Below, piece by piece: positions 1,443-24,299 of a stretch of DNA of 59,390 nucleotides. The notes beneath the pieces are model-generated. The model was not told the DNA's origin. It made no database searches and saw only the letters and a list, made by a program, of their open reading frames with translations. The number at the start of each line of letters is the position of its first letter. The first letter of the stretch is position 1. The stretch is from Promethearchaeota archaeon (GTDB taxonomy: Archaea > Asgardarchaeota > Lokiarchaeia > Sigyniarchaeales > SOKP01). Where the stretch lies: positions 1 through 59,390 of the forward strand of contig RDOE01000012.1 in assembly GCA_011364975.1 (NCBI GenBank), in the 5' to 3' direction. Both the position numbers and the translations under genes were made by a program.

Positions 1443-2057
1443 TTGAGTTTTGAAAAAATTTATCAAGAATACGTAGATAAATATGGTGAGCGTTCTAACT
1501 TATTTGAAATTATTAAAAAAAAGTTTCAAATTAAATCTGTGCTTTATCCTGGAAGCGCCTTACATCTAACTCCTTCATTCTATTTTCCCATAACGGTCTA
1601 TATAGATACTTACAGTAAAGCAAAACAATTTTTTTCTAAGAAAGGATTAATCGATTTTGTATTGGAAAGGAAAAAATATGAAGATTACCCAATAATCAGA
1701 TTTTATCCTTATGATTATAAAAAACCTATTCCTGAGGACCAAAATAGTTTTAACCTTCTCATCTCCCTATATGCTGGTTTCATATCAAAATATTGTAAAC
1801 GATATCTAAAGGAAGGAGGGATTCTACTTGTGAATAATTCTCATGGTGATGCCAGCATGGCATCAATTGATCCAGAATATGAATTATTCGCAGTAATTAA
1901 TCTAATAAATCGTAGATACTATCTTTCTCAAAAAAATTTGGATAATTATTTTATACCCAAAAAAAGTATTGCGATAACTCCTGAATATCTTGAAAAATGG
2001 CAGAGAGGCATAGGTTATAAAAAATCAGCAAGTCTTTATCTTTTTAAGAAAGTTTAG
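1443..2057 (+). CDS. Conserved hypothetical protein, possible class I SAM-dependent methyltransferase fold
   Basis: 204 aa ORF; VLYPGS, FNLLIS and YLKEGGILLV resemble class I MTase strand motifs. Confidence 0.5.
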   Translation: MSFEKIYQEYVDKYGERSNLFEIIKKKFQIKSVLYPGSALHLTPSFYFPITVYIDTYSKAKQFFSKKGLIDFVLERKKYEDYPIIRFYPYDYKKPIPEDQNSFNLLISLYAGFISKYCKRYLKEGGILLVNNSHGDASMASIDPEYELFAVINLINRRYYLSQKNLDNYFIPKKSIAITPEYLEKWQRGIGYKKSASLYLFKKV

Positions 2058-7586: not shown

Positions 7587-8801
7587 TTAATAACATTTAT
7601 GTACGTAATTATAAGTTATTATAAGAGAAAATCCCATTAATGCTAAAATAAGATAAAATGGAGCAAAAACATTAATTTCTCCTATTGGGCTAATGATCAT
7701 AGGAGCCATAGCACCACAAAAAAAACCAATCGCATTATTGAAGCCTATCCCTGAACCCTTTAATTCTGGTTTAATATCTTCAATAACTTCTAACAATAAG
7801 GTATTTCCCGCAGGATCAAATAAAGCTATCCCTATGCCTATGAACGCGCATAACGTTATAAAAATTATGAGGTTGTAAGCTAACACTTCTATAATAAAAG
7901 GAATACCAAATATTAGTACTATAGACTGGCCAATTATCATCATTTTTCTAGGACCTTGACGATCTAAAACTCTACTAGATACGAATACAAACACAACATA
8001 TAGAGCAACAATACCAATTAAAACATAACTTGTTTGAATTTCATCTAAAAGAAATTGTACTTGGAGAATCCAAATTAAATAAGCTACAATTCCTCCAAAT
8101 AAGAACCATCTCACACAATTTAATAGGACGGACATAATAAATTGATCATTTTTCAATAAAAGCTTGACATTTTCAAGATTCAAAGCCATCTTATTTGTAT
8201 TAACCTCACCATTATTCAAATTTTCACTCTTATTTTCCTTTAATACTATGAATAGAAAAAAAGCAACAATAATTATGAGGAGCCCAGAGATTGAAAAAAT
8301 GCTTCTAAAGCCTAGATAGCTTGAAATATATCCTCCAACAATGATACCTCCAAAGTAACCTATATTCATTGCTAAAGAATAATAGCCCATTCCCTTACCA
8401 TGTTGATCTTTTCCAAAAATATCTCCTATAGTGGCCTGAAGGATGGAAGTATAAGCCCCAATTCCTTGAATTGCTCTAAAAATTATTAATTGAAAGATAT
8501 CTTGTGCAATGAAACATAAAAAAGTTCCTGCAATATAGATACTGATTCCAATAAACACAATTTTCCGTCGACCAAACTTATCTGAAGCAAAAGCATAGGG
8601 AAATTGGAATATTGACTGTGTTACTGAAAAAATACCAATTATTATTCCATAAGAAGTCAACGAACCTGCTAAACTTATAACAAAAGAAGGTAATCCTATG
8701 TCTACAATACTCATCCCAAGACTTCTAAACGCTACCGCCATTAAAACTACAAAAAGAAGGATTTTTACTTGTTTACCGAATGGTTTAATCATAGACATCA
8801 T
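7587..8801 (-). CDS. MFS transporter (DHA1/YajR-like)
   Basis: Motif A SDKFGRRK, RAIQGIGA, about 12 TM segments; AGGAGG RBS upstream. Confidence 0.85.
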   Translation of the reverse strand: MMSMIKPFGKQVKILLFVVLMAVAFRSLGMSIVDIGLPSFVISLAGSLTSYGIIIGIFSVTQSIFQFPYAFASDKFGRRKIVFIGISIYIAGTFLCFIAQDIFQLIIFRAIQGIGAYTSILQATIGDIFGKDQHGKGMGYYSLAMNIGYFGGIIVGGYISSYLGFRSIFSISGLLIIIVAFFLFIVLKENKSENLNNGEVNTNKMALNLENVKLLLKNDQFIMSVLLNCVRWFLFGGIVAYLIWILQVQFLLDEIQTSYVLIGIVALYVVFVFVSSRVLDRQGPRKMMIIGQSIVLIFGIPFIIEVLAYNLIIFITLCAFIGIGIALFDPAGNTLLLEVIEDIKPELKGSGIGFNNAIGFFCGAMAPMIISPIGEINVFAPFYLILALMGFSLIITYNYVHKCY

Positions 8802-18098: not shown

Positions 18099-19526
18099 TT
18101 AAACGAGCCTTTCTCGTTTCCAATCAGAATTATCACTAGTCTGTAAATACCAACGCAATAATCTCTCTTTCAAATCTGTTATGGTTGTGAGATAATCTTT
18201 ATCATCAATTAAATTTAAAATTTCATCTGGATCATTTTGTAGGTTATAAAATTCTTCCCTCCCCTTGCTTCGAATAATTAATTTCCACTTATTTGTTCTA
18301 ATCATAACTGAACGCGCCACAGTTGTTCGATCTTCTTTAGGTATGTTAGTTTTATCAAAATAGATCCCAATATATGGTGTTTGAGGGCTGTTTATAACCG
18401 GTTCAAAACATTGAGGTTCTCTAGGATCATAACCCCCCTCAGCAAAAACAGCATTTCGAAGAAAATCTACTTCCGCTTTTAATAAAGGAAATAATGATTT
18501 ACCAAAATGCGTATATTTGGTTTTAACTTGGGCAATATCTAAAATTGTAGGAAAAAGATCTACATTTTCTATTAATTCATGAAAAATTTTATCCTTGATA
18601 TTTACATTTGGTATTTTCATGATTAATGGAATATTTATTAGACAGTCTTGGAATGCATTTGGCCACTTTTCCGTTAAACCATAATCTCCTACATAATCAC
18701 CATGGTCAGCAAAAAATAAGATAGCTGTATTCTCATATTCTCCTACCTTTTTTAAATTATTAACAACTTGGCCATATTGGTGGTCAACCTTAGTAATCAT
18801 ACCATAATAGGTCGCTATTATCTCTTTAAAATCTTCTTTCTTCAACTTATTTAATCCATAATGCTCATAAATTAAGTTCATAAATTTTGGTTTATCTTCT
18901 AGTCTCGGAGGTATTGGATCAGGTATATTTGCTCGATTATACATCGAGAAATATGGTTCTTCAACAGTATATGGCGGATGGGGGAAACTGAGAGCAATGA
19001 TTAAACAAAATGGTTTTTGAACTTCAGAATTTATGTATCTAATCGCTTCTTGAATAACATAATAATCCAAATCTTTTGCTTCCTCTACTGTTCTTTCTCC
19101 AAAATAAAAACTTTTTCTCAAATAATGATCTTCAGTGTAAGGATTTTCCTTTAGCTTTGATGTAAATTTGAGAGGAATTCTATTTGTGACACTAACTTTA
19201 AAAGCTTCTTTTGAAAACGTATCATTTCTTCCAAAATAAACAACATTATACCCCCTTTTCTTCAATAACCTTAGTAAATTCTCTTCATGGGGCTGAATTA
19301 AATAATATAAACTTCTATGACCACTTGAATGGATATATTGTCCCGTGAATGTTGCAATCCTGGAAGGAACACATACTGGGTTAACAGTAAAACAATTAGT
19401 AAATGCGAAACCATCCTTTGCTAAAGAGTCAAGATTTGGGGTTTTAATTAAGGGATTTCTTCTTCCATTTAATGAGATACAATCTCCACGCATCTCATCT
19501 GCTATAAAAATTACAATATTTGGCAA
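18099..19526 (-). CDS. Formylglycine-dependent sulfatase (choline-sulfatase-like)
   Basis: PNIVIFIADE, CVPSR (CxPxR), PHPPY and ADHGD; the true start may be ATT 19547 or ATA 19544. Confidence 0.92.
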   Translation of the reverse strand: MPNIVIFIADEMRGDCISLNGRRNPLIKTPNLDSLAKDGFAFTNCFTVNPVCVPSRIATFTGQYIHSSGHRSLYYLIQPHEENLLRLLKKRGYNVVYFGRNDTFSKEAFKVSVTNRIPLKFTSKLKENPYTEDHYLRKSFYFGERTVEEAKDLDYYVIQEAIRYINSEVQKPFCLIIALSFPHPPYTVEEPYFSMYNRANIPDPIPPRLEDKPKFMNLIYEHYGLNKLKKEDFKEIIATYYGMITKVDHQYGQVVNNLKKVGEYENTAILFFADHGDYVGDYGLTEKWPNAFQDCLINIPLIMKIPNVNIKDKIFHELIENVDLFPTILDIAQVKTKYTHFGKSLFPLLKAEVDFLRNAVFAEGGYDPREPQCFEPVINSPQTPYIGIYFDKTNIPKEDRTTVARSVMIRTNKWKLIIRSKGREEFYNLQNDPDEILNLIDDKDYLTTITDLKERLLRWYLQTSDNSDWKRERLV

Positions 19527-19736
19527 AAGATTCGAGTTTTCTATAATTTAACCACCTATCTCTTATTTTGCAATGATAATAATATGATATTAATCCTTTT
19601 TATGAAATTTGCATGCTGGGTCATGTCTACCAACAAACAAAGATAAAACTTATAATCTTACTTTTTAAAATAATAAATTATTATTAGCAATAAATTATTC
19701 TTACCTTTAAATTAAGTATACTAATTACTATAAAAA

Positions 19737-21760: not shown

Positions 21761-21977
21761 ATTATTGCGCTCTATCTTCTGACTTAATTATTTTTTCTTA
21801 GGATTTTTTATCCTATATCTTCTCAATATTAACCAATTAATTATAATCCATTGTAAAATTATTATTAGATTATTTATTTCTAAAGCTGTGTTTTATTTTT
21901 GTTTTAATAATATCCTTTTTAAAAGTAGTAATGCAATTTTAAATTATACAAAACTAAAAGAGATAAAGTTTGTTAGC

Positions 21978-22532
21978 GTGAACAATTTTAGGAAAGATCC
22001 ATATTATAATGAAAATGATAACTGGGATGTCATCGAAATTTCAAAAGTAAACGACAAAATTATTAAACGACTACTAAATTATTTAAAATCCGAAATATCT
22101 GAAAATTTCTTCATTTCATTTGAAAGCTTACTAAAACTGGGAAATAAAATACCTAAAACAACAATAAATAGTATTCTTGATGAATTAGATAAGTCTGATG
22201 ACTTTAAGAAGGAAATTTTCAAATTTATTTTAGATTTTACACAAAATTCCACAGTAGAATATCATTTGCTTCCCCAACTATACAACCCTGACTTTATACT
22301 TCGAGCTCGAGCAATAATGAAAATTGAAGTTAATAATGATAAGAGGTATATCAAGTTCTTATTACCTCTCTTAGAAGATCCAGATGATTCGGTTCGGTAT
22401 AAAACCATGAAATTTTTATCTAAATTTAAAGATAATTCTACTATATATAAGCATTTAAAAGCACATCTTGAAAAAGAGCTTAATCCTATAATTTTTGATA
22501 CCCTTAAGGAAAAATTAGAAGATGGGCTTTAA
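21978..22532 (+). CDS. HEAT-repeat (PBS lyase-like) protein
   Basis: LYNPDFILRARAI and LLPLLEDPDDSVRYKT repeats; GTG 21978 preferred to the track start at 21888. Confidence 0.7.
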   Translation: MNNFRKDPYYNENDNWDVIEISKVNDKIIKRLLNYLKSEISENFFISFESLLKLGNKIPKTTINSILDELDKSDDFKKEIFKFILDFTQNSTVEYHLLPQLYNPDFILRARAIMKIEVNNDKRYIKFLLPLLEDPDDSVRYKTMKFLSKFKDNSTIYKHLKAHLEKELNPIIFDTLKEKLEDGL

Positions 22533-22789
22533 AGCTAAAAAATAGGTTGATCTTTAATCTCTTTTTTAGAAAATTATCTTTTTGTTGCTGTTCCTTAACA
22601 CAACTAGAAAGAATAAAAATTTATCAAAAAGTAAAGAATTAAAAAAGACATTTTTAATTATTAATATATACAAAGTAAGTCATATCAGTGAAAATTTTGC
22701 TATTAAGCCAAAATTATCAGATTTTAAAATATTAAAAGCAAAAATATAATTTTAATTGAGGTTGGGGTAACAAATCAATATTTAAAAAA

Positions 22790-22794
22790 AGGTG
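22790..22794 (+). promoter_or_regulatory. Shine-Dalgarno-like AGGTG upstream of the Rab-like GTPase
   Basis: GGTG at 22791-22794 lies 7 nt before in-frame ATT 22802; the same GGTG precedes ATG 23337 and ATG 27854. Confidence 0.6.
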
Positions 22795-22801
22795 TTAAAG
22801 A

Positions 22802-23332
22802 ATTTCATCATATGATTACACGTTTAAAATATTATTACTTGGAGATGCTTCTGTAGGAAAAACATCATTTACCAAAAGATATTGTTATAATATATTTAAT
22901 CCTTCTGAGCGTCTTACAATCGGAGTAGATTTCCACGTTAAAACAATTGATTTAAATGACAAAAAGGTAAAGTTACAAATCTGGGACGTTGGAGGGGAAG
23001 AACGCTTTAGATTTTTATTGCCCACCTACTGTTTAGGAGCAAATGCAGCCTTTTTATTATATGATATTACACGACCACAAACCCTAGATAATATTGCTGA
23101 ATGGACTAATATTGTCCGTCAAAAGGGTGGTCCTATTCCTATAATGCTAGTAGGTTCAAAATTGGATCTTACTGATACCCAAAGACAAATTACTAGAGAA
23201 TATGGTATTCAGGTTGCTGAAAAAAATGAATTAGCATCATTTGCAGAAATATCAAGCAAAACTGGACAAAATGTCAATAAAACATTTGAGGTTCTCACAG
23301 AACTAACGTTAAAACGAACTGAAAGTAGGTGA
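22802..23332 (+). CDS. Rab-like small GTPase (Ras superfamily), 176 aa, probable ATT start
   Basis: Frame is open upstream of the track ORF (23018): (I)SSYDYTFKILLLGDASVGKTS...TIGVDF...KLQIWDVGGEERFRFLLPTYCLGA..LLYDIT..GSKLD..EISSK. Confidence 0.93.
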   Translation: MSSYDYTFKILLLGDASVGKTSFTKRYCYNIFNPSERLTIGVDFHVKTIDLNDKKVKLQIWDVGGEERFRFLLPTYCLGANAAFLLYDITRPQTLDNIAEWTNIVRQKGGPIPIMLVGSKLDLTDTQRQITREYGIQVAEKNELASFAEISSKTGQNVNKTFEVLTELTLKRTESR

Positions 23333-23336
23333 TTTC

Positions 23337-24299
23337 ATGGAAGACACTGAATTTTTAGCACTTAGCTCTCTATTTGATGCGATTGGGGTAATAGAAAAAG
23401 GTATAGAAAGAATCTATCACTATTTACTAATCAATAAAAGAATTGACAATTTAAAAGAAGTTGCTTCAAAATATAGTCTTACCCTTAAACGTGGTTATAA
23501 AATTTGTTCAGTTTTAAATGATTTAGGCTTGATACAAATCTATGATAGACCCATGAAAATTCATCTCGCTAATCCCCCAGATTCAATCTGGCAAGCTATT
23601 GTTAATGATAGAATCGATAAATTATCACTGGAATTTCAAGAAAAAAAAGAGCGAGCAGAAAATGCTTTAGTGGATTTTATTAAGCAATATCAACTTGAAG
23701 AACCTACAACCCAAGAATTCGTTGAATTTATTAATTATAATCTAAACAATTTTGATGATACTTATTATTCTTTTATGGCTAAAAACCAGTGTAAAATTGC
23801 GTTAGGTATTAGATATGAAAACGAATTAACAACAATCTTTAAAAAGCATGGCTTTCAGAACATACCCGAAAATTTAAGAGAATCTATGAAGACGGGAATG
23901 ATTAAAGTAAAGGATAATGTTAAAAATGTTGATCTAAAGGTTATATTTAACGCAGAATTAATTAAAGAATTATTAATTAGTAAAGAATTTGAACTCCTTT
24001 CGAATCACGTAGCCTCTTTTAATTTTAAATTTGGTAATTTAGATGTTCACGTAACATACGATGATTTTAGTAATTTTAGCCTTACAGATAATGAATTAAT
24101 ACAACCTAGTTTTGATCCCACAAATAGGTTGATTGGAGCTTATATTTCTCGTAATAAAAATATCTATCAAATCTTTAACGATAAATTTAACGAGTTATAT
24201 GCAAAAGGGATTTCTGTTTCACAATTTTTAAATGAACAAGAAGAAATTCCAATAGATAGCATAACCGAAACACAAGTTTTCACATTATGCTTATTATAA
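23337..24299 (+). CDS. TrmB-like transcriptional regulator (N-terminal wHTH, coiled coil, C-terminal effector domain)
   Basis: IYHYLL...KEVASK...YKICSVLNDLGLI..RPMK...PP resembles the TrmB wHTH; starts 4 nt after the GTPase stop with an AGGTGA RBS. Confidence 0.6.
   Translation: MEDTEFLALSSLFDAIGVIEKGIERIYHYLLINKRIDNLKEVASKYSLTLKRGYKICSVLNDLGLIQIYDRPMKIHLANPPDSIWQAIVNDRIDKLSLEFQEKKERAENALVDFIKQYQLEEPTTQEFVEFINYNLNNFDDTYYSFMAKNQCKIALGIRYENELTTIFKKHGFQNIPENLRESMKTGMIKVKDNVKNVDLKVIFNAELIKELLISKEFELLSNHVASFNFKFGNLDVHVTYDDFSNFSLTDNELIQPSFDPTNRLIGAYISRNKNIYQIFNDKFNELYAKGISVSQFLNEQEEIPIDSITETQVFTLCLL

Follow-up and report, generated by a model that had tools for sequence, protein, structure and literature searches.

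A Rab-like GTPase gene with a probable AUU start codon, and apparent genus-wide use of near-cognate starts, in an Asgard archaeon

Introduction

Contig RDOE01000012.1 of the Promethearchaeota archaeon assembly GCA_011364975.1 (Asgardarchaeota; Lokiarchaeia; Sigyniarchaeales; SOKP01), the 59,390 nt of which are referred to here as the window, carries on its forward strand a gene for a Rab-like small GTPase that has no ATG, GTG or TTG ahead of its essential N-terminal domain. Is this gene translated and, if so, from which codon? The window is contig C33 of a 3.74 Mb genome in 200 contigs, with an estimated completeness of 99% and a G+C content of about 30%. According to the accessible text of reviews of archaeal translation, the start codons are AUG, GUG and UUG (PMC7531240, PMC4705826). 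An earlier reading of the bare sequence (the original prediction) proposed initiation at an AUU codon, ATT 22802, with a frameshift, a sequencing error or a recent pseudogene as the alternatives. The locus was followed up in the current study by comparison with orthologous genes, by scans of the whole genome and by an examination of the gene for the initiation factor aIF1.

Results and Discussion

An intact GTPase gene without a canonical start codon

The stop-to-stop open reading frame (ORF) at nt 22799-23332 (+) comprises 177 codons and encodes an intact Ras/Rab-like GTPase. The sequence around 22785-22831 is ...AAAAAGGTGTTAA AGA ATT TCA TCA TAT GAT TAC ACG TTT AAA ATA..., in which the upstream in-frame stop is followed directly by AGA (22799) and then by ATT (22802-22804). 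All of the landmarks given in the original prediction are present (TAA 22796, GGTG 7 nt before ATT 22802, TTG 23018 after the G3 motif and, out of frame, ATG 22812 with the run T-TTA-AAA), and the observation of a GTPase gene without a canonical start is real. TTG 23018 is the sole in-frame ATG, GTG or TTG within the first 80 codons; it follows both G1 and G3, and was rejected as a start because it would remove G1-G3. The product matches the Pfam Ras family (PF00071) with an E value of 1.6e-44 over residues 10-168 when counted from AGA, and of 1.5e-44 over residues 9-167 when counted from ATT. At 151.8 bits, against a cut-off of 21.6, and with profile positions 1-158 of 162 covered, the protein belongs to the Ras superfamily. 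The domain thus begins at residue 9 or 10, and no canonical start lies 5' of this indispensable N-terminal part.

Upstream of ATT is a Shine-Dalgarno (SD) core, AGGTG (Table 1), of which the GGTG portion occupies 22791-22794. With an SD defined as any 5-mer of GGAGGTGAT, and the aligned gap as the distance that separates the start codon from the end of the aligned 9-mer, AGGTG lies at a gap of 5 from ATT 22802. This falls within the peak at gaps 3-6 (counts of 47, 29, 38 and 53) displayed by the ORFs of the genome that begin at a first ATG (n = 2406). Very probably, as judged from the sequence comparisons given below, this is a functional Rab-like GTPase gene that is translated from AUU 22802 behind an SD, and it forms part of a genus-wide use of near-cognate start codons. 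The AUU would be read as methionine by the initiator tRNA.

The start codon in orthologous genes

Start-region DNA was aligned for 22 loci, including orthologues of 80-88% identity in 21 other genomes of the same genus. The codon aligned with ATT 22802 is ATT at 12 loci, ATG at five, GTG at two and ATA at two; the remaining locus (L035) has a different codon, with ATT ATT just upstream. None of the 12 ATT loci has a canonical in-frame codon before position 11; the first one falls within the beta-1 strand that leads to the P-loop, or beyond it, and at four of the loci it is codon 18, 38, 73 and 73, respectively. A GGTG is found 7-8 nt 5' of the start codon in 18 of the 22 orthologues. The alignment points to more than a chance pattern: ATT itself recurs, it is exchanged for ATG, GTG or ATA at the same position, and the SD is kept.

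A wider set, which overlaps the first, was drawn from species-representative genomes and held 80 loci, 77 of which were analysed. Here the codon is ATG at 38 loci, ATT at 21, ATA at six, ATC at one, TTG at three, GTG at two and another codon at six, so that 28 loci with ATT, ATA or ATC (AUH) stand beside 43 with a canonical start. The distribution of GGTG within 20 nt upstream differs between these classes: it is present at 28/28 AUH loci, 4/38 ATG loci and 1/5 GTG or TTG loci, a comparison among related loci that does not amount to a formal test. It is the pattern that compensation of a weak codon by a strong SD would predict. Among relatives of lower identity from two other genera, ATA (L054) and ATC (L059) are found behind SD-like words, indicating that the habit is concentrated in this genus but not exclusive to it.

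ATT could in principle stand for an ordinary ATG that was altered by an error of sequencing or assembly, or by a variant private to the strain: one base would suffice, and ATG does occur in 5 of the 22 orthologues. The contigs of four runs from four studies, all of them DNA contigs and one run possibly the source sample, span nt 22746-22944 without any difference between 22689 and 22995; the nearest differences are at 22688 and at 22996 or beyond. As ATT also recurs in the first set, in 11 further species, and at 21 loci of the wider set, the probability of such an error is negligible.

That the gene has recently lost its ATG and is a pseudogene that is no longer translated would explain the absence of a canonical start, but does not agree with its history of selection. 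Comparison with five orthologues that start with ATT gives a dN of 0.08-0.10 and a dS that is at least 1.6 or undefined (saturated), and the proteins are 86-88% identical; for six further orthologues (L045-L050) dN/dS is unreliable, since the ungapped codon comparison drifts after an indel. The peptide that follows the start, xSYD[YF]TFK, is maintained although its codons vary synonymously (TAT/TAC, GAT/GAC, ACN, TTT/TTC). Saturated dS, low dN and synonymous conservation of this peptide together mean that the ATT state has lasted under purifying selection across species. The orthologues are free of internal stops, the SD is conserved, and so is the synteny with a downstream gene whose own SD overlaps the GTPase stop codon. 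A pseudogene, which would have undone the original prediction, is very improbable in view of these data.

The frameshift alternative assumes a start at the out-of-frame ATG 22812 and a -1 slip on T-TTA-AAA into the GTPase frame, giving MITRLKILLLG... While both elements are present in the window, neither is conserved among the ATT-start orthologues. ATG 22812 arises only because Tyr-Asp is spelt TAT GAT, and it is lost in the ATT-start orthologue L038, which has TAC GAT; the slippery run is gone from several orthologues, which read TTC AAA (e.g. L034, L038). Read in the GTPase frame, the codons 5' of the heptamer preserve SxYD[YF]TF, and the synonymous changes among them scramble the other frame. 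In addition, the aligned SD gap to ATG 22812 is 15, compared with 3-9 for real ATG starts. A frameshifted product is scarcely credible on this evidence, and of the readings considered AUU initiation at 22802 behind GGTG has the strongest comparative backing, in the orthologue codons, the SD and the signature of selection.

The original prediction also held that standard gene callers would truncate the gene. This is borne out by the jgi and lgn records, which start at a TTG just before the P-loop and are 164-166 aa in length. It does not apply to the NCBI records, since both the record of the window itself and those of orthologues already start at ATT (e.g. MSSYDY..., 176 aa).

Probable near-cognate starts across the genome

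AUU starts were described in the original prediction as rare, which does not hold for this genome: the genes that apparently begin with AUU, AUA, AUC or CUG number about 50 or more. The scans covered the 3742 stop-to-stop ORFs of at least 100 codons in this one genome, and the candidates were in-frame codons that follow the upstream stop and precede the first canonical start, with the SD more than 12 nt from the canonical start. The combined share of ATT and ATA is 15/27 at gap 4, 32/78 at gap 5 and 15/95 at gap 6, as against approximately 13-15% at gaps 10-24. With ATC included, the figures are 84/321 at gaps 3-7 and 141/1112 at gaps 10-24 (odds ratio 2.44, p = 2.7e-8). CTG shows 8/321 against 4/1112 (p = 0.0012) and ACG 5/321 against 6/1112 (p = 0.076) over the same intervals. 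Two clean scrambled-SD controls displayed no enrichment (odds ratios of 1.06 and 1.16); two further scrambles, GAGTGGTGA and AGTGGAGGT, contain true SD 5-mers, gave partial enrichment and were discounted as controls. First canonical starts with an SD at gaps 3-7 number 251 (183 ATG, 57 TTG, 11 GTG), and by rough arithmetic the near-cognate excess is about 50 genes. Raw counts of GGTGA-Nx-codon over the whole genome gave no signal, being swamped by coding occurrences.

A stricter filter (gap 3-7, a codon that is no further than 12 codons from the stop and 10 or more ahead of any canonical start, and an ORF of at least 120 codons) left 53 candidates (L060-L112), with ATT in 28, ATA in 14, CTG in five, ATC in four and ACG in two. 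In 24 of the 53 a Pfam domain begins N-terminal of the first canonical start (11 ATT, 7 ATA, 3 ATC, 2 CTG, 1 ACG). The ATT cases supported in this way include two Gtr1/RagA-like GTPases, a GPN-loop GTPase, DJ-1/PfpI and the succinyl-CoA synthetase beta subunit, and the ATA cases TatD, CinA, ATP synthase subunit D and a MinD/ParA-type ATPase. An FAD oxidoreductase (ATC) and a Rad50/SMC-like ATPase (ACG) are similarly supported, and the 24 also include the proteasome alpha subunit and Rpb7/RpoE. A test that is independent of the SD, on the 102 ORFs that carry a Walker A motif within their first 60 codons, gave further support: ten of these lacked a canonical start upstream of the motif, and eight of the ten have ATT (five cases), ATA, CTG or ACG at an SD gap of 4-5.

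These data bear on a further alternative, in which ATT is the start but is not positioned by the SD. The mRNA would then be leaderless or nearly so, with GGTG a promoter-proximal or other element, or an adjacent non-AUG codon of an ATA/ATT doublet would be used. Such an arrangement would suit the AT-rich, TATA-like words 25-60 nt 5' of the GTPase start, the ATA ATT tandem seen in some orthologues, and the fact that only 183 of the 2406 first-ATG ORFs have a 5-mer SD at gap 3-7. It would not account for the specific enrichment of near-cognate codons at SD gaps 4-6 across the genome, for the retention of GGTG by every AUH orthologue but few ATG orthologues (see above), or for the spacing in the Walker A genes, and is considered unlikely.

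A special initiator tRNA for AUU or AUA was looked for with aragorn and blastn, and no sign of one was seen in the incomplete tRNA set: aragorn recovered 10-15 tRNAs from the genome, probably because of introns. One intron-bearing tRNA-Met(CAT) was found which has A1 and a GGG anticodon stem and looks like a normal initiator; blastn gave no second copy. When run without the intron option, aragorn called one tRNA-Pyl(CTA), which is missing from the intron-aware run.

Apparent near-cognate starts of other genes across species

Three further genes were followed through the genus. The GPN GTPase gene has ATT at 14 of 23 genus loci, ATA at one, ATG at five and TTT at three, while the seven loci from other genera have ATG (six) or GTG (one). 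For the succinyl-CoA synthetase beta subunit, the 16 genus loci comprise 10 with ATA, four with ATT, one with GTA and one with ATG, and the two loci from other genera have ATG and GTG; 7 of its 14 AUH loci offer no canonical alternative before codon 18. The ETF-beta gene behaves differently, as CTG is seen in this genome only, and the remainder of the 22 genus loci have TTG (12), ATG (eight) or GTG (one).

Some loci do not fit readily into these classes. The three GPN loci with TTT (L207, L213, L214) have that codon where relatives have ATT, ATA or ATG, and an ATT lies two codons upstream at what looks too short an SD spacing. Similarly, the GTA locus of succinyl-CoA synthetase beta (L125) has its only near-cognate codons one to two positions upstream, again apparently too close to the SD.

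The gene for aIF1

The SUI1/aIF1 gene (PF01253) is present in the genome (contig C38, nt 7743-7958, minus strand; locus L173, nt 1462-1791, minus strand). All 15 full-length aIF1 genes of the genus (L173 together with L166-L168, L170-L172, L180-L184, L186, L188 and L190) apparently start with ATT and have no canonical start before the zinc knuckle. They share the pattern ...AAAGGTTGTGA NNN NNN NNN ATT AAA GAx GAx..., in which ATT is invariant and stands four codons after TGA. An ATG, GTG or TTG does not appear before codon 18, which is past the CxxC zinc knuckle at codon 9, and the N-terminus predicted from ATT is (M)KDDEICPICSFPK. In other genera of the order the start is more diverse, with ATA in g5 (two loci) and g10 (one locus, which has a GTG three codons upstream), TTG in g2 and g9 (five loci), GTG in g11 and ATG in g4 and g8 (three loci). 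The NCBI aIF1 records begin with MKDD..., i.e. at the ATT, under the protein name YciH, and many of the jgi, ena and lgn copies are fragments of 69-91 aa.

The gene of aIF1 thus appears to begin with the very codon that the factor discriminates against, as is the case for the bacterial infC gene; in the sections of PMC4705826 that could be consulted, rejection is described for Sulfolobus solfataricus, where aIF1 makes the 30S complex reject an AUU mRNA.

Two genomes of the genus (G005, locus L162; G007, locus L165) carry a second, divergent aIF1 copy of about 60% identity, in which GAGGTGA is followed after 7 nt by ATT AAA GA. and a GTG lies in frame inside the SD. These copies could be paralogues or binning contaminants.

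Points that weigh against these readings

Several observations count against the proposed AUU start and its extension to other genes. The support is comparative or statistical throughout. The source genome bin consists of 200 contigs and has an estimated contamination of 6%. Counts of orthologues are not phylogenetically independent, and the set of 77 loci overlaps that of 22. In the two ATA orthologues of the GTPase from the first set, and in relatives of these, translation could begin at a GTG that lies in frame within the SD, three codons before the ATA, and a leaderless or very short-leader mRNA (see above) would remove the role of the SD. Among the 53 filtered candidates, three of the 24 Pfam-supported cases are marginal, 13 are without a Pfam hit, 15 are uninformative and one (L082) is contradicted, as its domain begins after an ATG at codon 14. 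Of the 15 AUH loci of the GPN GTPase, two carry a TTG at codon 2 and a third carries one at -3, and 7 of the 14 AUH loci of succinyl-CoA synthetase beta carry TTG two codons downstream. The CTG of ETF-beta, being unique to this genome, could be a recent lesion. Finally, a protein alignment of the 15 genus aIF1 sequences with 14 others revealed no obvious loss of conserved blocks, which leaves the start codon and analogy as the basis for the idea of feedback.

The GTPase and its neighbourhood

Table 1. Features of the GTPase locus within the window
Feature	Position (nt)	Strand	Evidence or remark
HEAT-repeat protein gene, 5' neighbour	21783..22532	+	Pfam HEAT_2
Shine-Dalgarno core AGGTG	22790..22794	+	complements 16S 3' end consensus (sub-words of GGAGGTGAT)
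In-frame TAA	22796..22798	+	closes the frame 5' of the GTPase gene
ATT, inferred start codon	22802..22804	+	aligns with ATG and GTG of orthologues; database record of the window begins here as M
GTPase coding sequence, 176 aa	22802..23332	+	Pfam Ras, orthologues; includes TGA stop 23330-23332
Out-of-frame ATG 22812 and T-TTA-AAA 22823-22829	22812..22829	+	frameshift alternative, rejected
G1/P-loop GDASVGKT	22841..22864	+	translation; 5' of every canonical in-frame start
G3 DVGGE	22985..22999	+	translation
TTG, first canonical in-frame start	23018..23020	+	codon 73 counted from AGA
3' partner gene, 320 aa	23327..24299	+	range includes SD; ATG 23337, ORF 23337-24299

The source genome has 48 Ras-like matches, of which this gene is one, and the GTPase product also matches the Roc, Arf and Gtr1/RagA profiles. 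If the small-GTPase motifs are taken to be GxxxxGK[ST] for G1, DxxG for G3 and [NT]KxD for G4, the protein has the first two, as GDASVGKT and DVGG, and a variant G4, SKLD. It also contains the switch-I word IGVDF, which is presumably a Rab motif, and NCBI names its orthologues 'Rab family GTPase'. The G3 of Ras and Rab proteins, which we take to be WDTAGQE with a catalytic Gln, is replaced by WDVGGEE, with Glu at the Gln position, and in this respect the protein departs from eukaryote-type Rabs. The Glu is kept in the orthologues seen, and suggests an unusual chemistry of GTP hydrolysis or a dependence on a partner. A second departure concerns the C-terminal Cys motif for geranylgeranylation that eukaryote-type Rabs are assumed to carry: the last 90 residues, with the C-terminus ...EVLTELTLKRTESR and the end ...TLKRTESR, contain no Cys at all. 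By its sequence, the product is classed as a Rab-like member of the Ras superfamily without a prenylation cysteine.

Approximately 265 nt of non-coding DNA separate the HEAT-repeat gene from the GTPase start, and a HEAT gene is found 5' of the GTPase in 21/21 orthologous loci. On the other side, the SD of the partner gene, AGGTGAT (23327-23333), overlaps the GTPase stop codon; the 320-aa gene lies directly 3' of the GTPase in 20/21 orthologous loci and is full length in 18. No Pfam family was matched by the 320-aa protein. Its neighbours in language-model feature space are TrmB-type winged helix-turn-helix regulators (scores 0.90-0.91), which is taken as a lead only, and the protein may be a GTPase-coupled regulator.

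No Rfam family exceeded its gathering score anywhere in the window. A scan for bacterial-type promoters and terminators, which is uninformative for an archaeon, gave promoter sites no commoner than in shuffled sequence and zero terminators. Elsewhere in the window, a sulfatase gene (nt 18102-19547, minus strand; Pfam Sulfatase, E = 6e-47) has AGGTGG followed by TAA ATT ATA. It was considered as a second near-cognate start in the window and found unconvincing, as a canonical start lies seven codons in and the domain begins at residue 9.

A proposed mechanism and its implications

The following sequence of events is proposed. The GTPase mRNA would carry a short leader whose AGGUG base-pairs with the 16S rRNA 3' end and sets AUU in the P site at the spacing that this organism uses for AUG. 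The initiator Met-tRNA would then pair with AUU in spite of the mismatch at the third position, and the product would begin with MSSYDYTFKILLLG... Across the genus, SD-anchored AUU, AUA and AUC, together with some CUG, would be ordinary and evolutionarily stable starts for dozens of genes, exchanging with AUG, GUG and UUG at the same position between species.

A more tentative proposal, which goes beyond the start of the GTPase gene and is possible rather than probable, concerns aIF1. By analogy with known systems, aIF1 may limit its own synthesis through its AUU start and be held at a level that tolerates SD-anchored near-cognate codons. Such relaxed stringency could have let several percent of the genes adopt SD-anchored AUU, AUA, AUC or CUG, and AUU-started genes such as the GTPase would then be translated at a reduced, aIF1-dependent rate, as members of a translational regulon tuned by aIF1. 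If so, aIF1 would join bacterial IF3 (AUU) and eukaryotic eIF1 (poor context) as a third, independent case of an initiation-fidelity factor that controls itself by way of its own weak start. The regulon would include Rab-, Rag- and GPN-type GTPases, the proteasome alpha subunit, an RNA polymerase subunit and an ATP synthase subunit, and would operate in the archaea most closely related to eukaryotes.

Near-cognate starts and AUU autoregulation are already known in bacteria, and the NCBI records already call the ATT starts described here. Searches of the full-text literature, with subscription journals and supplements outside its coverage, yielded no account of archaea, Asgard or otherwise, that initiate frequently at AUU or AUA, nor of an AUU start on aIF1. 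Here, a whole Asgard genus appears to use AUU and AUA routinely, given a strong SD. For annotation, this means that Prodigal-type calls truncate or lose such genes, so that surveys of Asgard gene content and of eukaryotic signature proteins can be biased. For mechanism, the AUU on aIF1 offers an archaeal parallel, open to direct testing, to the feedback loops of IF3 and eIF1, and bears on how start-codon stringency evolved on the line towards eukaryotes. For regulation, initiation may be the level at which housekeeping genes with weak starts, small GTPases included, are controlled together.

Comparison with known systems

The GTPase resembles the Rab-like, Ras-superfamily small GTPases of Asgard archaea in its Ras-family G domain (PF00071). 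Relative to the motifs expected of these proteins, it differs in the lack of a prenylation Cys, in the Glu of its G3 (DVGGE) and in the SKLD of its G4.

The abundance of near-cognate starts recalls Deinococcus deserti, for which the accessible part of the report (PMC2830850) describes non-canonical starts above expectation that were missed by gene callers. That organism is a bacterium and its starts were established by N-terminal proteomics, whereas the evidence here is comparative and statistical.

The closest parallel to the start itself is infC of Escherichia coli, the gene for IF3, whose AUU start follows an SD and shows conservation between species. There, use of such starts is governed by the same factor that discriminates against AUU (Butler et al. 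1987, as cited in the available text of PMC4705826). The likeness extends to aIF1, a functional analogue of IF3, with its ATT start in each of the 15 genus orthologues. The two cases differ in that the gene at this locus encodes an archaeal GTPase and not a fidelity factor, and in that AUU, AUA and AUC starts occur in tens per genome rather than in a handful of genes. Moreover, the fold of aIF1 is unrelated to that of IF3, and any autoregulation of aIF1 here would be a prediction from its start codon.

In eukaryotes, aIF1 has a homologue in eIF1, and a weak initiation signal on its own mRNA would give negative feedback of the same kind. Bacterial IF3 and eukaryotic eIF1 are each described, in the portions of PMC6237735 and PMC4705826 that were available, as regulating themselves through their own weak start, and a low level of eIF1 is stated there to favour suboptimal starts. 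The eukaryotic loop operates with an AUG in a poor Kozak context and with scanning, whereas that proposed for the present genus would operate with an AUU and an SD, and no scanning.

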